Below, one piece after another: positions 24,913-61,669 of a stretch of DNA of 64,000 bases (positions are counted from its first letter, which is position 1; each line of letters opens with the position of its first letter). The translations under genes and the position numbers were made by a program. Source of the stretch: an uncultured virus (IMG/VR IMGVR_UViG_2881085443_000001) (Duplodnaviria > Heunggongvirae > Uroviricota > Caudoviricetes > Crassvirales); IMG/VR virus record IMGVR_UViG_2881085443_000001; one strand, written 5' to 3'. A model generated the notes under the pieces. It searched no databases and was not told where the DNA came from. It saw nothing but the letters and a program-made list of their open reading frames with translations.

Positions 24913-25011
24913 AGTAAATTCATTTAAATCTCTAAAATTACACTAATAATAGAAATTATTTATATCAAATACAAATGTAATAAATATTTAGTATCGTTTT
25001 ATTGTATTTTT

Positions 25012-25034
25012 AGTATAATTATTTTATACTTTTG
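25012..25034 (+). promoter_or_regulatory. promoter (-7 TACTTTTG) overlapped by a 19-bp palindromic box, driving the RNA operon
   Basis: AGTATAATTATTTTATACT at 25012-25030 and TACTTTTG at 25027-25034; divergent CAAATGTA at 24972. Confidence 0.6.
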
Positions 25035-25116
25035 AAAAGTCGAACTAACGTACTTCACCGCCTTTCTTGTGAAGGAGATAAAGAGAAATAAAATGGTTTT
25101 TAGTTAGTTCGGTTTT

Positions 25117-25227
25117 GGGGAAGTAGCTCAGTAGGCTAGAGCGATTGCAAAACTATCGATTATCATTTTTTAAAATGTAGATAGTTAATTCGACAGTAGG
25201 TCAGCGGTTCGAGTCCGTTCTTCTCCA
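25117..25227 (+). ncRNA. tRNA-Ala-like RNA with anticodon loop replaced by a long hairpin
   Basis: Acceptor GGGGAAG/CTTCTCC-A with G3-U70, D-arm GCTC/GAGC, T-arm AGCGG-TTCGAGT-CCGTT, and an extended arm of about 55 nt. Confidence 0.7.
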
Positions 25228-25378
25228 CGAGGATCTGTTAAGAAAGTACTGACAATGTATTCACAGATGGGGGTAGTAATAGGATTCTTACCAATGCTAC
25301 ACGCGAAAATGATAGTTCAACCGGTAAATACAATCGTAAGTCATTAGGTATTGACAGCTTGGAAAGACAAGCAAAAAC

Positions 25379-25489
25379 AGGGATGTGGCGGAATGGTAGA
25401 CGCTAGATATGGATAGAGAATTGAGTCGATTTAAATTCATCGAGTTAAGAGAATCACTTAACGTTTGGGTTCGAGTCCCAGCTTCCCAA
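25379..25489 (+). ncRNA. tRNA-Leu-like RNA with an insertion between D and anticodon arms
   Basis: TGGCGGAATGGTAGACGC D-arm, GTTAAG/CTTAAC variable arm, TTGGG-TTCGAGT-CCCAG T-arm, imperfect acceptor stem. Confidence 0.6.
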
Positions 25490-25644
25490 CAAAGTCGAGG
25501 TGCTTAATGCTTGTTTGACGACTTTTACAAAAACATAGAAGCTTTGACAGCCGGAATAGACGGATCGGTAGTTTTCGGTACTCACATAATAGAACCGATG
25601 GCGAAAAAGGAAAAGAACTTTTGACAGTAGGAAAGACTACGGTT

Positions 25645-25731
25645 AAAGAAGTGCCGTATATCCGGATCGTGAAAGCGAATATGTGAAATTCATAGACTTA
25701 GGAAATGCAGATTCGAATTCTGTCTTCTTTG
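25645..25731 (+). ncRNA. degenerate tRNA-like RNA with an extra GAAA-tetraloop hairpin
   Basis: AAAGAAG/CTTCTTT acceptor and GCAGA-TTCGAAT-TCTGT T-arm. Confidence 0.5.
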
Positions 25732-25866
25732 CGAAATAATGCGGATAGCTCTACGGGAGATTAGGGAAGACTAATAACAATGCTATGCTGTGAGGTAATG
25801 TCCCTCGCTTTAATCCGTAGGAATCCTGGCACAGGAGAGTGTAGTTATAATACATTACACAATATT

Positions 25867-25938
25867 GGGACTGTAGCTTAGACGGTAAAGCATATACCCG
25901 AAAAGGTATAGACGGCGGTTCGATTCCGCCCTCGCCCG
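25867..25938 (+). ncRNA. tRNA-like RNA with mismatched acceptor stem and 6-bp/6-nt anticodon arm
   Basis: D-arm GCTT/AAGC, TATACC-CGAAAA-GGTATA, 3-nt GAC connector, GGCGG-TTCGATT-CCGCC T-arm. Confidence 0.6.
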
Positions 25939-25943
25939 CAAAA

Positions 25944-26003
25944 TTGTTCGTTGACGTATTACAAGTTTTTGTATGGACCGGAGTTCGATTCTCCGCGCCT
26001 CCA
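25944..26003 (+). ncRNA. ssrA: two-piece tmRNA, acceptor piece
   Basis: GGAC-CGGAG-TTCGATT-CTCCG-CGCCTCC-A; pairs with the downstream GGGGGCG; 5' boundary approximate. Confidence 0.85.
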
Positions 26004-26147
26004 CGAATCGCTCGCCACGATGTAAGTTTCTTTATTCTTTAAAAATAAAGTGGTGGAGTCACCGAGAAATCGTTGACCTAAGTTTATGAAATGCGAATGT
26101 GGTTTTTACTTCCTGAAAATGGTTTAAAAATAAAACCCATTAGAAAA

Positions 26148-26290
26148 GGGGGCGACTGGTTTTGACAGCAATGCACGAGTAGTAAAGAGAACTTTTTTAT
26201 TTTTTAACCGGCAAATTAATTAGCCTTAACAATGCACCGCTTAGAGCAGTAGCGTAGTTACGAAACTTGGGAGAGCGTCAATCTCCCTTT
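26148..26290 (+). ncRNA. ssrA: two-piece tmRNA, coding piece (tag ORF 26210-26257, GKLISLNNAPLRAVA)
   Basis: Begins GGGGGCGACTGGTTTTGACAGC like Bacteroidetes tmRNA 5' ends; resume codon GGC after TAACC; tag ends AVA-stop. Confidence 0.85.
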
Positions 26291-26295
26291 TTTTT
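26269..26295 (+). terminator. intrinsic terminator closing the RNA operon
   Basis: GGGAGA-GCGTCAA-TCTCCC followed by T8. Confidence 0.75.
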
Positions 26296-26698
26296 ACAAA
26301 ACTAAAACCATTTCATCTACCTTAACGCTGCCGTTAGCGTATCCCATTTCCTGGTAGATCTTTTTCAAATTTTGGTTTTTTACGACGGTATAAATGTATT
26401 TGCTTCCTTTTCTTTTGGCTAGCTCATTCAGTTCATAGATCAGGATCTTAATCGCTTCTTTGCGGTCCTTGTCTTTATAATCAAAATTGGATATGATAAA
26501 CTCACTCCAAGCAATAGCGCTATTGGTAAAATAAATAAAACCGGCCACAATATTCACGCCGTCCTTATGCACCATCATTCCTCCGGTGCCGTTCTCCGGC
26601 AAAAAATCCCTTGGCGGTGCGGTCCATCGAAAGGCTTTCCACCACTGGCACAAAACATCGTAATCAGTTTCGTTTAAAAATCGTACGGAGAATTCCAT
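26294..26698 (-). CDS. GNAT-fold virion assembly protein
   Basis: 134 aa, acetyltransferase-like pattern, in the usual podovirus position between tail and ejection genes. Confidence 0.55.
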   Translation of the reverse strand: MEFSVRFLNETDYDVLCQWWKAFRWTAPPRDFLPENGTGGMMVHKDGVNIVAGFIYFTNSAIAWSEFIISNFDYKDKDRKEAIKILIYELNELAKRKGSKYIYTVVKNQNLKKIYQEMGYANGSVKVDEMVLVL

Positions 26699-47690: not shown

Positions 47691-49895
47691 CTATTTTGCT
47701 GTTGATAAATTTCCGACGTTGTTGTATTTCTGAAAAGGATTCCCTCTTCGTCTGGTTTTGGGTGCTTCGACTTCTATTTTTTGGTTTCCTAAAAGCGATA
47801 AGGAAGAGCTGATATAGGCATCAAACTTTGTTCTTTGGTTAGGATCTACCTCTTTCCACTGCATTAAAGTCCTGGTAAAAGGCATAAATGCTATCGTTTC
47901 TTTTGCTCTGTTTATTTCTTCTCTGGCAACGCCCACATGATCTTCGATATAACTTTGAATGGCGTAAAACTGAGCGTCGCCAATTTTTACATTTTGCGCC
48001 GGACAACCTCCAAACTCCTTTTCGTTTGGACCTAAATCAACAAAGTTTTTAAACGGATTGTTCATGCTGAAATGACGGTACCTGCGATCTCTGATCATCG
48101 TCAGAAACTGGTAGTTCGATAATTCGCAAAGCATTGGCATAGAAAAATATACCATGGCCATTAAAACATCTTCAAAGAACATTTCTATTTTTGGCGCTCG
48201 GTCCAGGTATTCTAATATAAAAGCGTTGTTGGGAAGGTTGCTGGTATTGAGTTTTGTACTCAAATGCACCGCGCCGCGCGAACCTCTGCCGTCTGCTGAT
48301 TTTGTGGTATTGTACGGATCGACTCCAAAACAACCAATATTTAATGCTGTTGGCGCCCACGCGGAAACGCCGTTGATAAACTTCATTTCTTTTTTGTTGC
48401 GAAATTCCGGAGCTGGATGGCAACCTCTGGCGATCCAAAACCTACCGTTAGGATCTGGATTCCATTGTACCGCTGTATCCGGTATGCCGTTTTCCCAAGA
48501 GAAATTCCCTCTTTCTATTTCGTCCGGAAGCATATCGAATTCGTTGTGATCTATTTGCTCCGTGATTTTTATCAGGTTAAACGAACAGTCCGTCGCTTCA
48601 TCACGGAACGCGTCGCGAACGGTATCCGGGAACTGGCGTTTTTGTTCATTGAGTTCTTCAGGATCGTTTTTCAACGCTTCCTCTACATTTTTCAAATGCG
48701 TTACAGATCCAACTTTTGTTTTTACTCCAATATCAGTCATGACTTCAAACTCCTGGTCTTCGACTATGGTGAAACCGTATTCATCAAACTTTCCTTCTAA
48801 GCAATATTTAGCAGCAATAAAAATGCGATACAATCCTGATTTAGTTTGTCCATTGGCATTTCGTTCGTTTACATCGCTGTCTTTCCAGATTTTCTCATAC
48901 TCCGCACCACCTTTGCTTTTCGCATTTACCGTAGAAACCACCATGGATTTTCCTGTAATATTCACTCCTTTGGTATGAGACGTTTTTACGATATACCAGT
49001 ACTTATCGAATGGAACATCTTTAGGGTATTTACCGGATTCATCCAGCAGCGAACGAAAGATAGCGTCCCCATCCATCGCATTTATTTCGGTGTTGTGCCA
49101 AGAGATTACAGATCCAAGACCGTCTTCATTAACGACCTCGTTTTTGGCTCTTCTTTTGGTAGGAACATCAAGGACCAATTCCTTTTTAGGCGTATTGGTA
49201 CCGTCCCATAACGGTTGAAAGAAACAAGGCAAACGTTTAAATCCTTTGATTAATCGATTGAAAATTTTCTTGGAATCGTCTCCTTTTTTAGAAACAATGC
49301 CTAACAATTTATCTTCGTTAATGGTTCCTGATTCCAGTAATTCCACCACGGCCAGGTACGAAGCTCCAATACGTCTGTTTTTCACGTACTGCATTCCATA
49401 GCATCTGTTGTCTGCTTTACAGGCTTCCCAGAAAATCATCAATTCGTTTTGAATTACCCTGAAGTCCGGAAACTCTTTTTCCTCCCGGATCCATTGTATG
49501 CCGTAATAATAAGTCCCGGTAATATAGATAGGAATTCCTTTTACATAGGCCCAAACTCCTTTTTCCCTGCGCTCGTATTCACGATCTATATAATCAGAAT
49601 ATTTAGGATTGTGCATCGTAGCTTCCGTCAATCCAACTGGAATTTCCTCACGTTTGAATTTTTGATTGGCTGCGGTTTTATCGTGATTTAAGATGTTCTG
49701 CTTATTGGGAACTTCCGGAAAACCAATATTGATTCCACTTACGCTGTAAATTTCCCCAAGAGTTCCGACCTTAGATATTATAACGGTATCAATAGAAGCG
49801 TCATAGCCGTATTCCCAAGACTTGGCCTTGTTTTTAGCTAGACGAACTTTATGGTCCGTTACGTTATCGACTTTATCTCCTAAGTAAAATATCAT
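47691..49895 (-). CDS. terminase large subunit
   Basis: Walker A-like KNRRIGASY, Walker B LLDESGK, VSTVN, nuclease FGVDPY and RTKFDAYISS. Confidence 0.9.
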   Translation of the reverse strand: MIFYLGDKVDNVTDHKVRLAKNKAKSWEYGYDASIDTVIISKVGTLGEIYSVSGINIGFPEVPNKQNILNHDKTAANQKFKREEIPVGLTEATMHNPKYSDYIDREYERREKGVWAYVKGIPIYITGTYYYGIQWIREEKEFPDFRVIQNELMIFWEACKADNRCYGMQYVKNRRIGASYLAVVELLESGTINEDKLLGIVSKKGDDSKKIFNRLIKGFKRLPCFFQPLWDGTNTPKKELVLDVPTKRRAKNEVVNEDGLGSVISWHNTEINAMDGDAIFRSLLDESGKYPKDVPFDKYWYIVKTSHTKGVNITGKSMVVSTVNAKSKGGAEYEKIWKDSDVNERNANGQTKSGLYRIFIAAKYCLEGKFDEYGFTIVEDQEFEVMTDIGVKTKVGSVTHLKNVEEALKNDPEELNEQKRQFPDTVRDAFRDEATDCSFNLIKITEQIDHNEFDMLPDEIERGNFSWENGIPDTAVQWNPDPNGRFWIARGCHPAPEFRNKKEMKFINGVSAWAPTALNIGCFGVDPYNTTKSADGRGSRGAVHLSTKLNTSNLPNNAFILEYLDRAPKIEMFFEDVLMAMVYFSMPMLCELSNYQFLTMIRDRRYRHFSMNNPFKNFVDLGPNEKEFGGCPAQNVKIGDAQFYAIQSYIEDHVGVAREEINRAKETIAFMPFTRTLMQWKEVDPNQRTKFDAYISSSLSLLGNQKIEVEAPKTRRRGNPFQKYNNVGNLSTAK

Positions 49896-61464: not shown

Positions 61465-61669
61465 TTACTCGTTTTTTTGGTTTAACTGTTTTACTTTCCC
61501 TTGTATTCCTTTTACTTTTACCGATGTGAAACCGGCCACATATTTTACATTTGTAAATTTCAGAAGCTCCATCTGAATGCTCATTCTGTAAAAAATAGTT
61601 TGCTGATAACTTTGTTTTGTGCTGCGTCTTTCCGGCGCAACCTTTCATAAAGCTATTAGTACATGCCAT
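61421..61669 (-). CDS. small basic zinc-finger protein
   Basis: CAGK...YKCKICGRFHIG. Confidence 0.6.
   Translation of the reverse strand: MACTNSFMKGCAGKTQHKTKLSANYFLQNEHSDGASEIYKCKICGRFHIGKSKRNTRESKTVKPKKRVNEEQHKRKHKRFKY

Follow-up and report, generated by a model that had tools for sequence, protein, structure and literature searches.

A compact cluster of non-coding RNA genes was identified in the 64,000-nucleotide (nt) stretch of DNA analyzed here (hereinafter the window), which belongs to an uncultured crAss-like virus (IMG/VR record IMGVR_UViG_2881085443_000001) and corresponds to positions 273358-337357 of contig C12 in a 3.84-Mb bacterial genome that is 99.99% complete by marker genes. 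The cluster lies in a 1.38-kb gap (24913-26293) with blocks of minus-strand virion genes on both sides, and forms a non-coding plus-strand unit of about 1.25 kb that consists of a promoter-like box near 25027, four tRNA-shaped elements, a gene for a two-piece (permuted) transfer-messenger RNA (tmRNA) and a terminator. The four elements, denoted RNA1 to RNA4 (25117-25227, 25379-25489, 25645-25731 and 25867-25938, all on the plus strand), are indeed present where an earlier note on this DNA had placed them; that note did not mention the downstream permuted tmRNA gene (25945-26297), the hairpin with a GAAAGA loop that is repeated before RNA2 and RNA3, or the phage context.

The Rfam tRNA model RF00005 (gathering score 29 bits; the loose-threshold run reports matches to E<=10) scores RNA1 (46.3 bits) and RNA4 (40.0 bits) above the gathering score and RNA2 below it (24.3 bits, E 0.028), and gives no match to RNA3 at E<=10. 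ARAGORN at default settings reported 0 tRNA or tmRNA genes in the whole window, and the YrlA model RF02553 reached 21.6 bits, its gathering score being 69. As proposed in the earlier note, none of the elements has a usable anticodon loop, that is, a 5-bp stem closing a 7-nt loop with U33 and an anticodon: the RF00005 alignment places a 46-nt insert in the anticodon arm of RNA1, RNA2 has 22 extra nt followed by an 8-nt loop, RNA3 has two small hairpins, and RNA4 has the 6-nt loop CGAAAA. The accompanying claim that all four keep a perfect T-arm and a D-arm-like stem needs qualification. The T-arm is perfect in RNA4, the T stems of RNA1 and RNA2 contain one G.U pair each, and the claim fails for RNA3, where the T stem has an A53-U61 pair and one G.U pair, and the D-like stem is only 3 bp long with a loop that lacks GG. 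The T-loop pattern RTTCGANTYC has five matches in the window against 2.1 expected, four of them on one strand within 25207-25927. The alanine identity pair and discriminator (G3:U70 and A73) are present in RNA1 only, RNA2 having G3-C70/A73, RNA3 A3-U70/G73 and RNA4 G3-C70/G73, and none of the units encodes CCA. Folding energies (z = -2.25, -0.38, -0.47 and -1.45 for RNA1 to RNA4) are not distinctive alone.

The tRNA-Ala body of RNA1 and its family

RNA1 (25117-25227) has the body of a tRNA-Ala(UGC), with the acceptor stem GGGGAAG/CTTCTCC that includes the G3:U70 pair, A73 followed by CGA instead of CCA, and a 4-bp D stem (GCTC/GAGC) with GG in the loop; the best global alignment of its two halves is with the host tRNA-Ala(UGC). 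In place of the anticodon arm there are 56 nt (25143-25198), in which four base pairs of the old stem (ATTG/CAGT) are kept and followed by a hairpin, AACTATC...GATAGTT, with the tip CATTT-TTTA-AAATG. The alanine-type acceptor and the long hairpin described in the earlier note hold on reading of the sequence, the inner stem being read as CATTT/AAATG.

The exact 22-nt 3' half of RNA1 is found in 14 IMG/VR contigs, all 14 of which have a matching Ala-type 5' half as well. These contigs and the window make up a family of 15 members with 13 distinct middles of 14-96 nt, among which one is armless and two have an insert in the D-loop; ARAGORN calls only two of the 14 contigs, as Leu(tag) and '???'. 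When IMG/VR was searched with the 5' half, leaving the 3' half free, 19 contigs were retrieved, namely nine canonical 74-nt tRNA-Ala(UGC) genes, one tRNA-Asn (C70/G73) and nine genes with replaced arms, the middles of which span 8-69 nt. Four of these nine were already in the 3'-half set, and one of the new members is only 59 nt long, with an 8-nt middle. Overall, the inserts carried by the Ala body in IMG/VR range from 8 to 96 nt and are unrelated in sequence, and the minimal armless forms (L026, L289) are a minority. Given the nine canonical tRNA-Ala genes among the 5'-half contigs, the mimics descend from a real phage tRNA-Ala, the change being confined to the anticodon arm. The phage tRNA-Asn(GUU) of L299 is letter-identical to the tRNA-Ala body over its first 26 nt but has C70 and G73, and thus phage tRNA genes of differing identity can share one 5' half.

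Comparison of individual members suggests that the inserts are structured and exchangeable. Between two loci with the same insert type (L286 and L298), a G-C pair in the main stem of the insert is swapped for A-U, and a G.U pair is changed to A-U; consensus folding of three type-A family members detected no covariation, three being too few sequences. Homologous flanks surround different inserts in L030 and L033 (79% identical over 145 nt downstream) and in L027 and L029 (82% over 80 nt upstream). Some anticodon-less look-alikes combine G3:U70 and A73 with different stems, such as the second unit of L035 (GGGGGAT/ATCCTCC) and L155, which has another T stem.

Close relatives of the array were found among contigs from four public runs (X1, X2, X3 and X15, the last labeled RNA-Seq but probably DNA), which were aligned to 25040-26300 at >=80% likeness and compared as summaries of these alignments. 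Among the public runs listed as containing the stretch, none is recorded as RNA. In the X1 and X3 relatives, exactly the segment 25143-25198 is replaced by 65 other letters, whereas 25040-25142 and 25199-25493 are nearly unchanged, with flanks 96-99% alike. The RNA1 insert of the X2 relative begins with CAAAGAAAA, like those of L022, L027 and L030. Near-identical relatives also gain, lose or replace whole units. In the X15 relative, position 25733 is joined to 25941, which removes spacer 3 and RNA4 and places RNA3 directly next to the tmRNA acceptor piece, and the X3 relative has 162 other letters instead of 25737-25927.

The other units, the tmRNA gene and the phage setting

RNA2 (25379-25489) combines a class-II (Leu/Ser-like) D arm and a T arm with an acceptor stem in which five of the seven pairs are formed, the mismatches being A1.A72 and U6.U67. 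Its middle consists of a 22-nt linker, a TCGAT/ATCGA hairpin with an 8-nt loop and a GTTAAG/CTTAAC hairpin with a 7-nt loop, so that the Leu-like body with about 22 extra nt and an 8-nt loop reported previously is confirmed. Class-II bodies of similar design, in which the middle is long and the acceptor stems covary and are perfectly paired, were found in L022, L047, L086, L098, L114, L117 and L140; because these look-alikes keep perfect stems of differing sequence, they support the RNA2 design as a real class, of which the window contains an imperfect copy. RNA2 itself is changed in the relatives only at 25397 in the D loop and at 25433 in the hairpin loop (A>C). A search of genome contigs with the 3' half of RNA2 gave two unrelated matches, in Mollicutes and Clostridia assemblies, and the junction between the upstream hairpin and RNA2 has 0 matches in metagenome contigs.

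RNA3 (25645-25731) folds into a cloverleaf-like structure, the minimum free energy structure being identical to the centroid, with a perfect 7-bp acceptor (AAAGAAG/CTTCTTT), G73 followed by CGA, the T arm GCAGA-TTCGAAT-TCTGT, a 3-bp D-like stem, a GAAA-tetraloop hairpin and a triloop hairpin. The extra TCGT-GAAA-GCGA hairpin noted previously is confirmed, and ARAGORN finds the element at a relaxed threshold only. In the X3 and X15 relatives, C25654>T is accompanied by G25665>A, a change from C-G to U-A that leaves the D-like stem paired, and the GAAA loop is altered on an unchanged stem. An exact-pattern scan of IMG/VR with the 3' half gave 0 matches.

RNA4 (25867-25938) has a tRNA-Lys-like body with fully Watson-Crick D and anticodon stems. 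Reading of the sequence bears out the 6-bp stem, the 6-nt loop and the three acceptor mismatches of the earlier description, the latter forming a 3x3 block (4:69, 5:68 and 6:67). A 132-nt contig from X1 runs from the leader through the first 19 nt of RNA1 into 28 letters, and then into the T arm of RNA4 and on into the tmRNA piece. These 28 letters comprise a normal D-arm end and the arm TTACC-CTTTTAA-GGTAA (Lys, UUU), and the middle of RNA4 is recognizably similar to them in an alignment made by eye, which suggests that RNA4 is a remodeled tRNA-Lys; it may also be on its way out. This canonical-looking arm at the RNA4 slot is, in part, the kind of homolog in a relative that the earlier note had named as speaking against its reading, and is treated here as a lead since it comes from a single short contig at >=80% likeness. 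The 28 letters and the 3' half of RNA4 each had 0 matches in IMG/VR, the latter in an exact-pattern scan. Several phage tRNA-like genes are labeled 'tRNA-???' by ARAGORN, with two- or four-base 'anticodons'; their loops are of 6 nt (L033, L076, L113, L138 and L140) or 8 nt (L142), and 6-nt loops like that of RNA4 thus recur in unrelated phage tRNA arrays.

Downstream of RNA4, the permuted-tmRNA model RF04321 matches 25945-26193 (46.3 bits, 0.7 under the gathering score of 47; E 1.3e-7; model positions 1-133 of 213), and the entire gene (25945-26297) is missed by ARAGORN. The acceptor piece (25945-26006) contains the 3' strand of P2, GGAC, the T arm CGGAG/CTCCG, the acceptor 3' strand CGCCTCC and A73 followed by CGA. 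It is separated by a segment of about 140 nt (26007-26147) from the coding piece (26148-26268), which begins with GGGGGCG ACTGGTTTTGACAGC and includes a candidate tag frame at 26210-26257, GKLISLNNAPLRAVA followed by a stop. All three parts are on the plus strand. The intervening segment is hypervariable in the relatives, with indels, substitutions, or 62-68 other letters instead. The host tmRNA is a normal one-piece gene with the tag GENNYALAA; the resume codon of the phage frame (GGC, 26210) and its upstream context resemble those of the host gene, and the two tmRNAs show two compensatory differences, U-A to G-C at acceptor pair 5:68 and C-G to G-C in the T stem. The tag frame of the relatives ends in NNTELRAAA and a stop, with two of the five changed codons being synonymous. 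The acceptor piece lies upstream of the coding piece, G3:U70 and A73 are present, and the frame has an Ala-rich C-terminus, tagging itself being a prediction. Because of the permuted order, the compensatory pairs and the tag frame with synonymous changes, we predict that this two-piece tmRNA gene is functional. The resemblance of its ends to the one-piece tmRNA of the host suggests independent permutation of the phage tmRNA. The tmRNA 3' 24-mer occurs in at least 120 loci in metagenome contigs, and CCA comes next in every one of those listed; these were taken as ordinary bacterial tmRNA genes and are thus uninformative for the phage gene.

Spacers of approximately 130-155 nt separate the units and close with a conserved hairpin immediately upstream of the following unit. 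TTGACAG followed by GCTTG-GAAAGA-CAAGC (25351-25373) lies 6 nt before RNA2, and TTGACAG followed by GTAG-GAAAGA-CTAC (25621-25640) lies 4 nt before RNA3. A variant, TTTGACAG with CCG-GAATAGA-CGG, is located inside spacer 2 (25543-25563), and a degenerate form, ATTAG-GGAAGA-CTAAT, is a weak motif match in spacer 3 (25760-25775); all are on the plus strand. Among the IMG/VR matches listed, TGACAG with a GAAAGA-loop hairpin and covarying stems is present in 92 of 120 loci (L042-L161) of all GC contents. It lies 4-8 nt upstream of tRNAs and look-alikes, immediately upstream of small RNAs with long hairpins, or some 20-70 nt upstream of start codons, and may be a processing signal, a stabilizer or a promoter. 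On a 322-kb contig (L064), each of five tandem 78-nt units begins with this hairpin. The Ala-type units of L030 and L033 are followed by a spacer of about 145 nt, 79% identical between the two loci and also ending in the GAAAGA hairpin; this spacer may itself be a structured RNA. Spacers 1-3 of the window have no homologs outside close relatives among phage records and host-family genomes. Two other candidates were rejected: of two matches to GGAAAGAC, the one at 61626 shows no hairpin on reading and the one at 48879 is inside a 734-aa open reading frame (ORF; 47691-49895), and a 26-codon ORF in spacer 1 (MGVVIGFLPMLHAKMIVQPVNTIVSH with a stop; 25268-25348, plus strand), read by eye, has no counterpart in the other spacers.

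The promoter-like box TACTTTTG (25027-25034, plus strand) fits what we take to be the Bacteroidota -7 promoter type, TAnnTTTG, and a scan for sigma-70 promoters found nothing above chance. It is followed by a leader (25040-25116) with a long-range inverted repeat (25040-25049, TCGAACTAAC; 25103-25112, GTTAGTTCGG) that ends 4 nt before RNA1. The relatives differ in the leader at 25075, 25076, 25080, 25083 and 25100, four of these positions being in the purine-rich unpaired part and 25100 lying three bases upstream of the 3' arm of the repeat. An intrinsic terminator, GGGAGAGCGTCAATCTCCC with T8 (26269-26297), was the one found by the terminator scan. In a relative with 55-69% identity (L036), the syntenic slot contains a single ordinary tRNA-Met behind the same promoter box, the string TATACTTTTGAAAA being present upstream.

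The genes of the window are crAss-like, including the Crassvirus muzzle C-terminal domain (PF25729) in Pfam and PHROGs for the portal, the large terminase and many 'virion structural proteins'; one virion protein comprises 2840 aa (Pfam/PHROG scan). The long ORFs of the phage are open in the standard code. The contig that holds the crAss-like genome exceeds 736 kb, and because the genome lies inside it, it looks integrated beside a tRNA; no match to the tyrosine integrase PF00589 was found near the crAss-like genome. A host tRNA-Arg(ACG) gene (G000:C12:272992-273066) is located 292 nt upstream of the start of the window and is followed by a 451-aa ORF (857-2212 in the window) without a Pfam match, which belongs to PHROG 6347, of unknown function. 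Searches with neighboring proteins retrieved one and six related loci only, none of which has the array. The array region has no DNA similarity match in 50,697 phage records, and in 400 genomes of the host family its matches are confined to the ends of host tmRNAs and the T arms of tRNAs.

Possible functions of the array

We favor, with modest confidence, the interpretation that the array is an operon in the phage 'tRNA slot' that produces non-decoding RNAs built on tRNA bodies; judging from the comparisons above, these would be a modular, fast-changing set presumably expressed together with the phage tmRNA. The stack of the acceptor and T-arm, together with the elbow, would let host RNase P, 3'-trimming enzymes and the CCA-adding enzyme excise, finish and stabilize each unit, and the same cuts would release the neighboring RNAs, among them the tmRNA acceptor piece, whose 5' end lies 6 nt downstream of RNA4. 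RNA1, which keeps the full alanine identity set, would probably be charged by alanyl-tRNA synthetase (AlaRS), and its replaced anticodon arm would be the variable working end, for example, a protein-binding or decoy hairpin. RNA2 and RNA3 would be further units of the same design.

Several observations weigh against this interpretation. The folding z-scores of RNA2 to RNA4 are unremarkable, and on paper these three would be weak substrates: RNA2 has two acceptor mismatches, RNA3 has no Rfam match and no G18G19, and RNA4 has three acceptor mismatches and is absent in relatives. Homologs of the sequences specific to RNA2-RNA4 were not found beyond close relatives in scans of IMG/VR and of genome and metagenome contigs. 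No target for the inserts emerged either, with antisense matches of inserts and spacers in the host genome being of low complexity only and no tRNA-handling enzyme found among the 78 phage ORFs scanned with Pfam. That contigs share an identical Ala body could be due to recent spread or to gene conversion and not to selection for charging, and all the enzymology of the units is inferred.

Other explanations draw in part on the same evidence. Near-identical relatives have swapped inserts and have gained or lost units; such hypervariability of the slot is as in an arms race and would fit the idea, unlikely in our estimate but not negligible, that the elements are decoys for host tRNA-targeting defense enzymes, that is, mimics that soak up a nuclease or a modifying toxin aimed at host or phage tRNAs. 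PrrC- and PARIS-type nucleases classically target tRNA-Lys(UUU), which RNA4 resembles, and because the Ala acceptor end is kept letter for letter, enzymes that act on this end could still be engaged. However, anticodon nucleases recognize the anticodon loop, which is precisely what all four elements lack, so that a role as decoys for these nucleases, suggested in the earlier note, is unsupported and unlikely; furthermore, Pfam and PHROG scans of the window revealed neither a defense system nor a tRNA repair gene, and the binding partner is hypothetical. A similarly low probability is given to pure punctuation, whereby the tRNA shapes would be cut signals, like t-elements, whose sole role is to set free the spacer RNAs and the tmRNA pieces. 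The location of RNA4 next to the tmRNA acceptor piece, the direct joining of RNA3 to that piece in the X15 relative and the regular spacers with their terminal hairpins are all compatible with this scenario, as is the processing of tRNA-like non-tRNA substrates by RNase P, described in passages of PMC11143913, and the role of RNase P/Z processing guides, which the earlier note offered as an alternative, is plausible. Cut signals, however, need neither G3:U70 and A73 nor long structured inserts, and yet armless forms are the minority in the Ala family, the structure of the insert is conserved between L286 and L298, and spacers 1-3 lack homologs outside close relatives.

That the units are decaying tRNA pseudogenes left in a tRNA slot appears quite unlikely for the array as a whole, with differences between the units. 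Canonical tRNA-Ala genes with the same body are found in nine of 19 contigs, one relative has a canonical-looking Lys(UUU) arm in the position of RNA4 while others lack RNA4 or have it replaced, the acceptor stems of RNA2 and RNA4 contain mismatches, and RNA3 is unrecognizable to Rfam. Against decay, the damage to RNA1 is limited to the anticodon arm, the acceptor, D and T arms being identical across contigs with 13 distinct middles; compensatory changes are seen in the insert (L286/L298) and in RNA3; and in RNA4 the T arm is perfect and both the D stem and the anticodon stem are fully Watson-Crick. The proposal of the earlier note that the RNAs are non-decoding mimics rather than products of random decay is therefore best supported for RNA1, which has the body of a canonical tRNA-Ala(UGC), differing structured inserts and a compensatory change, and for which decay is already unlikely; decay is possible for RNA2 and still a fair reading for RNA4. 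It seems very doubtful that RNA1 is a modulator of trans-translation, a mini-tmRNA consisting only of the tRNA-like domain (TLD) that would compete for SmpB, AlaRS or stalled ribosomes alongside the phage tmRNA, even though RNA1 and the two-piece tmRNA share an operon, the Ala identity set and the ...CCACGA end, and the TLD-only tmRNA of phage DS6A, as well as inhibition of tmRNA by such a molecule, is cited in passages of PMC4131195. The D arm of RNA1 is normal, with GG in the loop, as opposed to the stem-less D-loop of tmRNA, and RNA1 is derived from tRNA-Ala; most members of the family have no nearby tmRNA, and in 14 loci Rfam gave only sub-threshold tmRNA matches that overlap the mimics. 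Highly improbable, finally, are intron-containing tRNAs spliced into decoders. ARAGORN with the -i option does model RNA1 as Leu(UAA) with a 19-nt intron and RNA2 as an ochre suppressor (UUA) with a 15-nt intron, but the predicted intron positions are non-canonical, the same option applied across the Ala family yields His, Thr, Val and Cys with shifting positions, relatives have C instead of A at 25433, the supposed anticodon base of RNA2, and the long phage ORFs are open in the standard code. To our knowledge, there is no short-intron splicing system in bacteria; the intron model was rejected given that no consistent anticodon arm is restored at a fixed insert position.

Returning to the favored interpretation of non-decoding RNAs on tRNA bodies, we consider a broader version of it with appreciable doubt, namely that the Ala-tRNA body is a natural plug-in chassis in phages, with the slot of the anticodon arm accepting swappable RNA cargo (an aptamer, sponge or decoy) that would be exchanged by recombination across the invariant halves; host tRNA enzymes would mature it, and alanylation might protect it. 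If this tentative idea is correct, the chassis would represent an RNA-level system of accessory cassettes that, in the present case, might share an operon with other tRNA-bodied units and a two-piece tmRNA. It would be the RNA counterpart of the protein accessory-gene cassettes of phages and a natural precedent for engineered tRNA scaffolds. No description of phage tRNA-Ala-bodied RNAs with a replaced anticodon arm was found in a literature search of the full text of main articles. Standard tRNA finders either overlook such genes or label them pseudo-tRNAs, so that a recurrent RNA class stays hidden in phage annotations. The locus is a good test case, with a near-complete host assembly, close relatives with alternative inserts, and four units along with a tmRNA that has a searchable tag; with a tRNA-shaped unit directly before the acceptor piece, it also bears on the cutting of two-piece tmRNA precursors.

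Comparison with known systems

Non-decoding tRNA-like RNAs are already known, including TLD-only tmRNA, t-elements, Y-RNA-like RNAs and other substrates of RNase P. RNA1 shares with the canonical phage tRNA-Ala(UGC) (RF00005) the acceptor, D and T arms, the variable loop and the Ala identity set, but its anticodon arm (approximately positions 26-44) is replaced by 56 nt that contain neither a 7-nt loop nor an anticodon, and ARAGORN is silent. Like the TLD-only tmRNA of mycobacteriophage DS6A and the message-less mitochondrial tmRNAs, RNA1 combines an alanine-type acceptor with the lack of an anticodon and of a message, and the DS6A molecule is phage-encoded as well, according to passages of PMC4131195. 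Those molecules, however, derive from a tmRNA with a stem-less D-loop, whereas RNA1 derives from a tRNA-Ala with a normal D arm and is accompanied by a separate, complete two-piece tmRNA. Assignment of RNA1 to the DS6A type, which is marked by a stem-less D-loop and a GAC/GGAC junction to helix 2, was rejected given that the molecule has a 4-bp D stem and aligns to tRNA-Ala.

The t-elements of plant mitochondria (PMC1920247) and the tRNA mimics cut by RNase P (passages of PMC11143913) are likewise tRNA folds inside longer transcripts, where cutting by tRNA-processing enzymes could define the ends of their neighbors. Unlike t-elements, the RNA1 family keeps aminoacylation identity together with long inserts of conserved structure, and processing is predicted here from fold and position. 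With other phage two-piece tmRNAs, such as that of methylophage Melnitz, the tmRNA of the window shares the order of acceptor piece, spacer and coding piece, the Ala identity set and a tag frame; this type accounts for 53 of 133 unique phage tmRNA structures, as reported in passages of PMC9004378. It differs in that its ends resemble the one-piece tmRNA of the Bacteroidota-type host rather than the alpha-proteobacterial or cyanobacterial permuted lineages, and in that the coding piece is short (about 120 nt). The YrlA and Y RNA-like mimics (RF02553) are also bacterial or phage non-coding RNAs with a tRNA-like module, but the RNAs of the window have no Ro-binding helix and no Rsr gene nearby. 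In the engineered 'tRNA scaffold', a laboratory design that relies on host tRNA processing and stability, a recombinant RNA is placed in the anticodon arm of a tRNA. As in that design, an intact tRNA body here carries a foreign RNA in place of the anticodon stem-loop; in the phages, however, the arrangement would be natural, recurrent and exchangeable.

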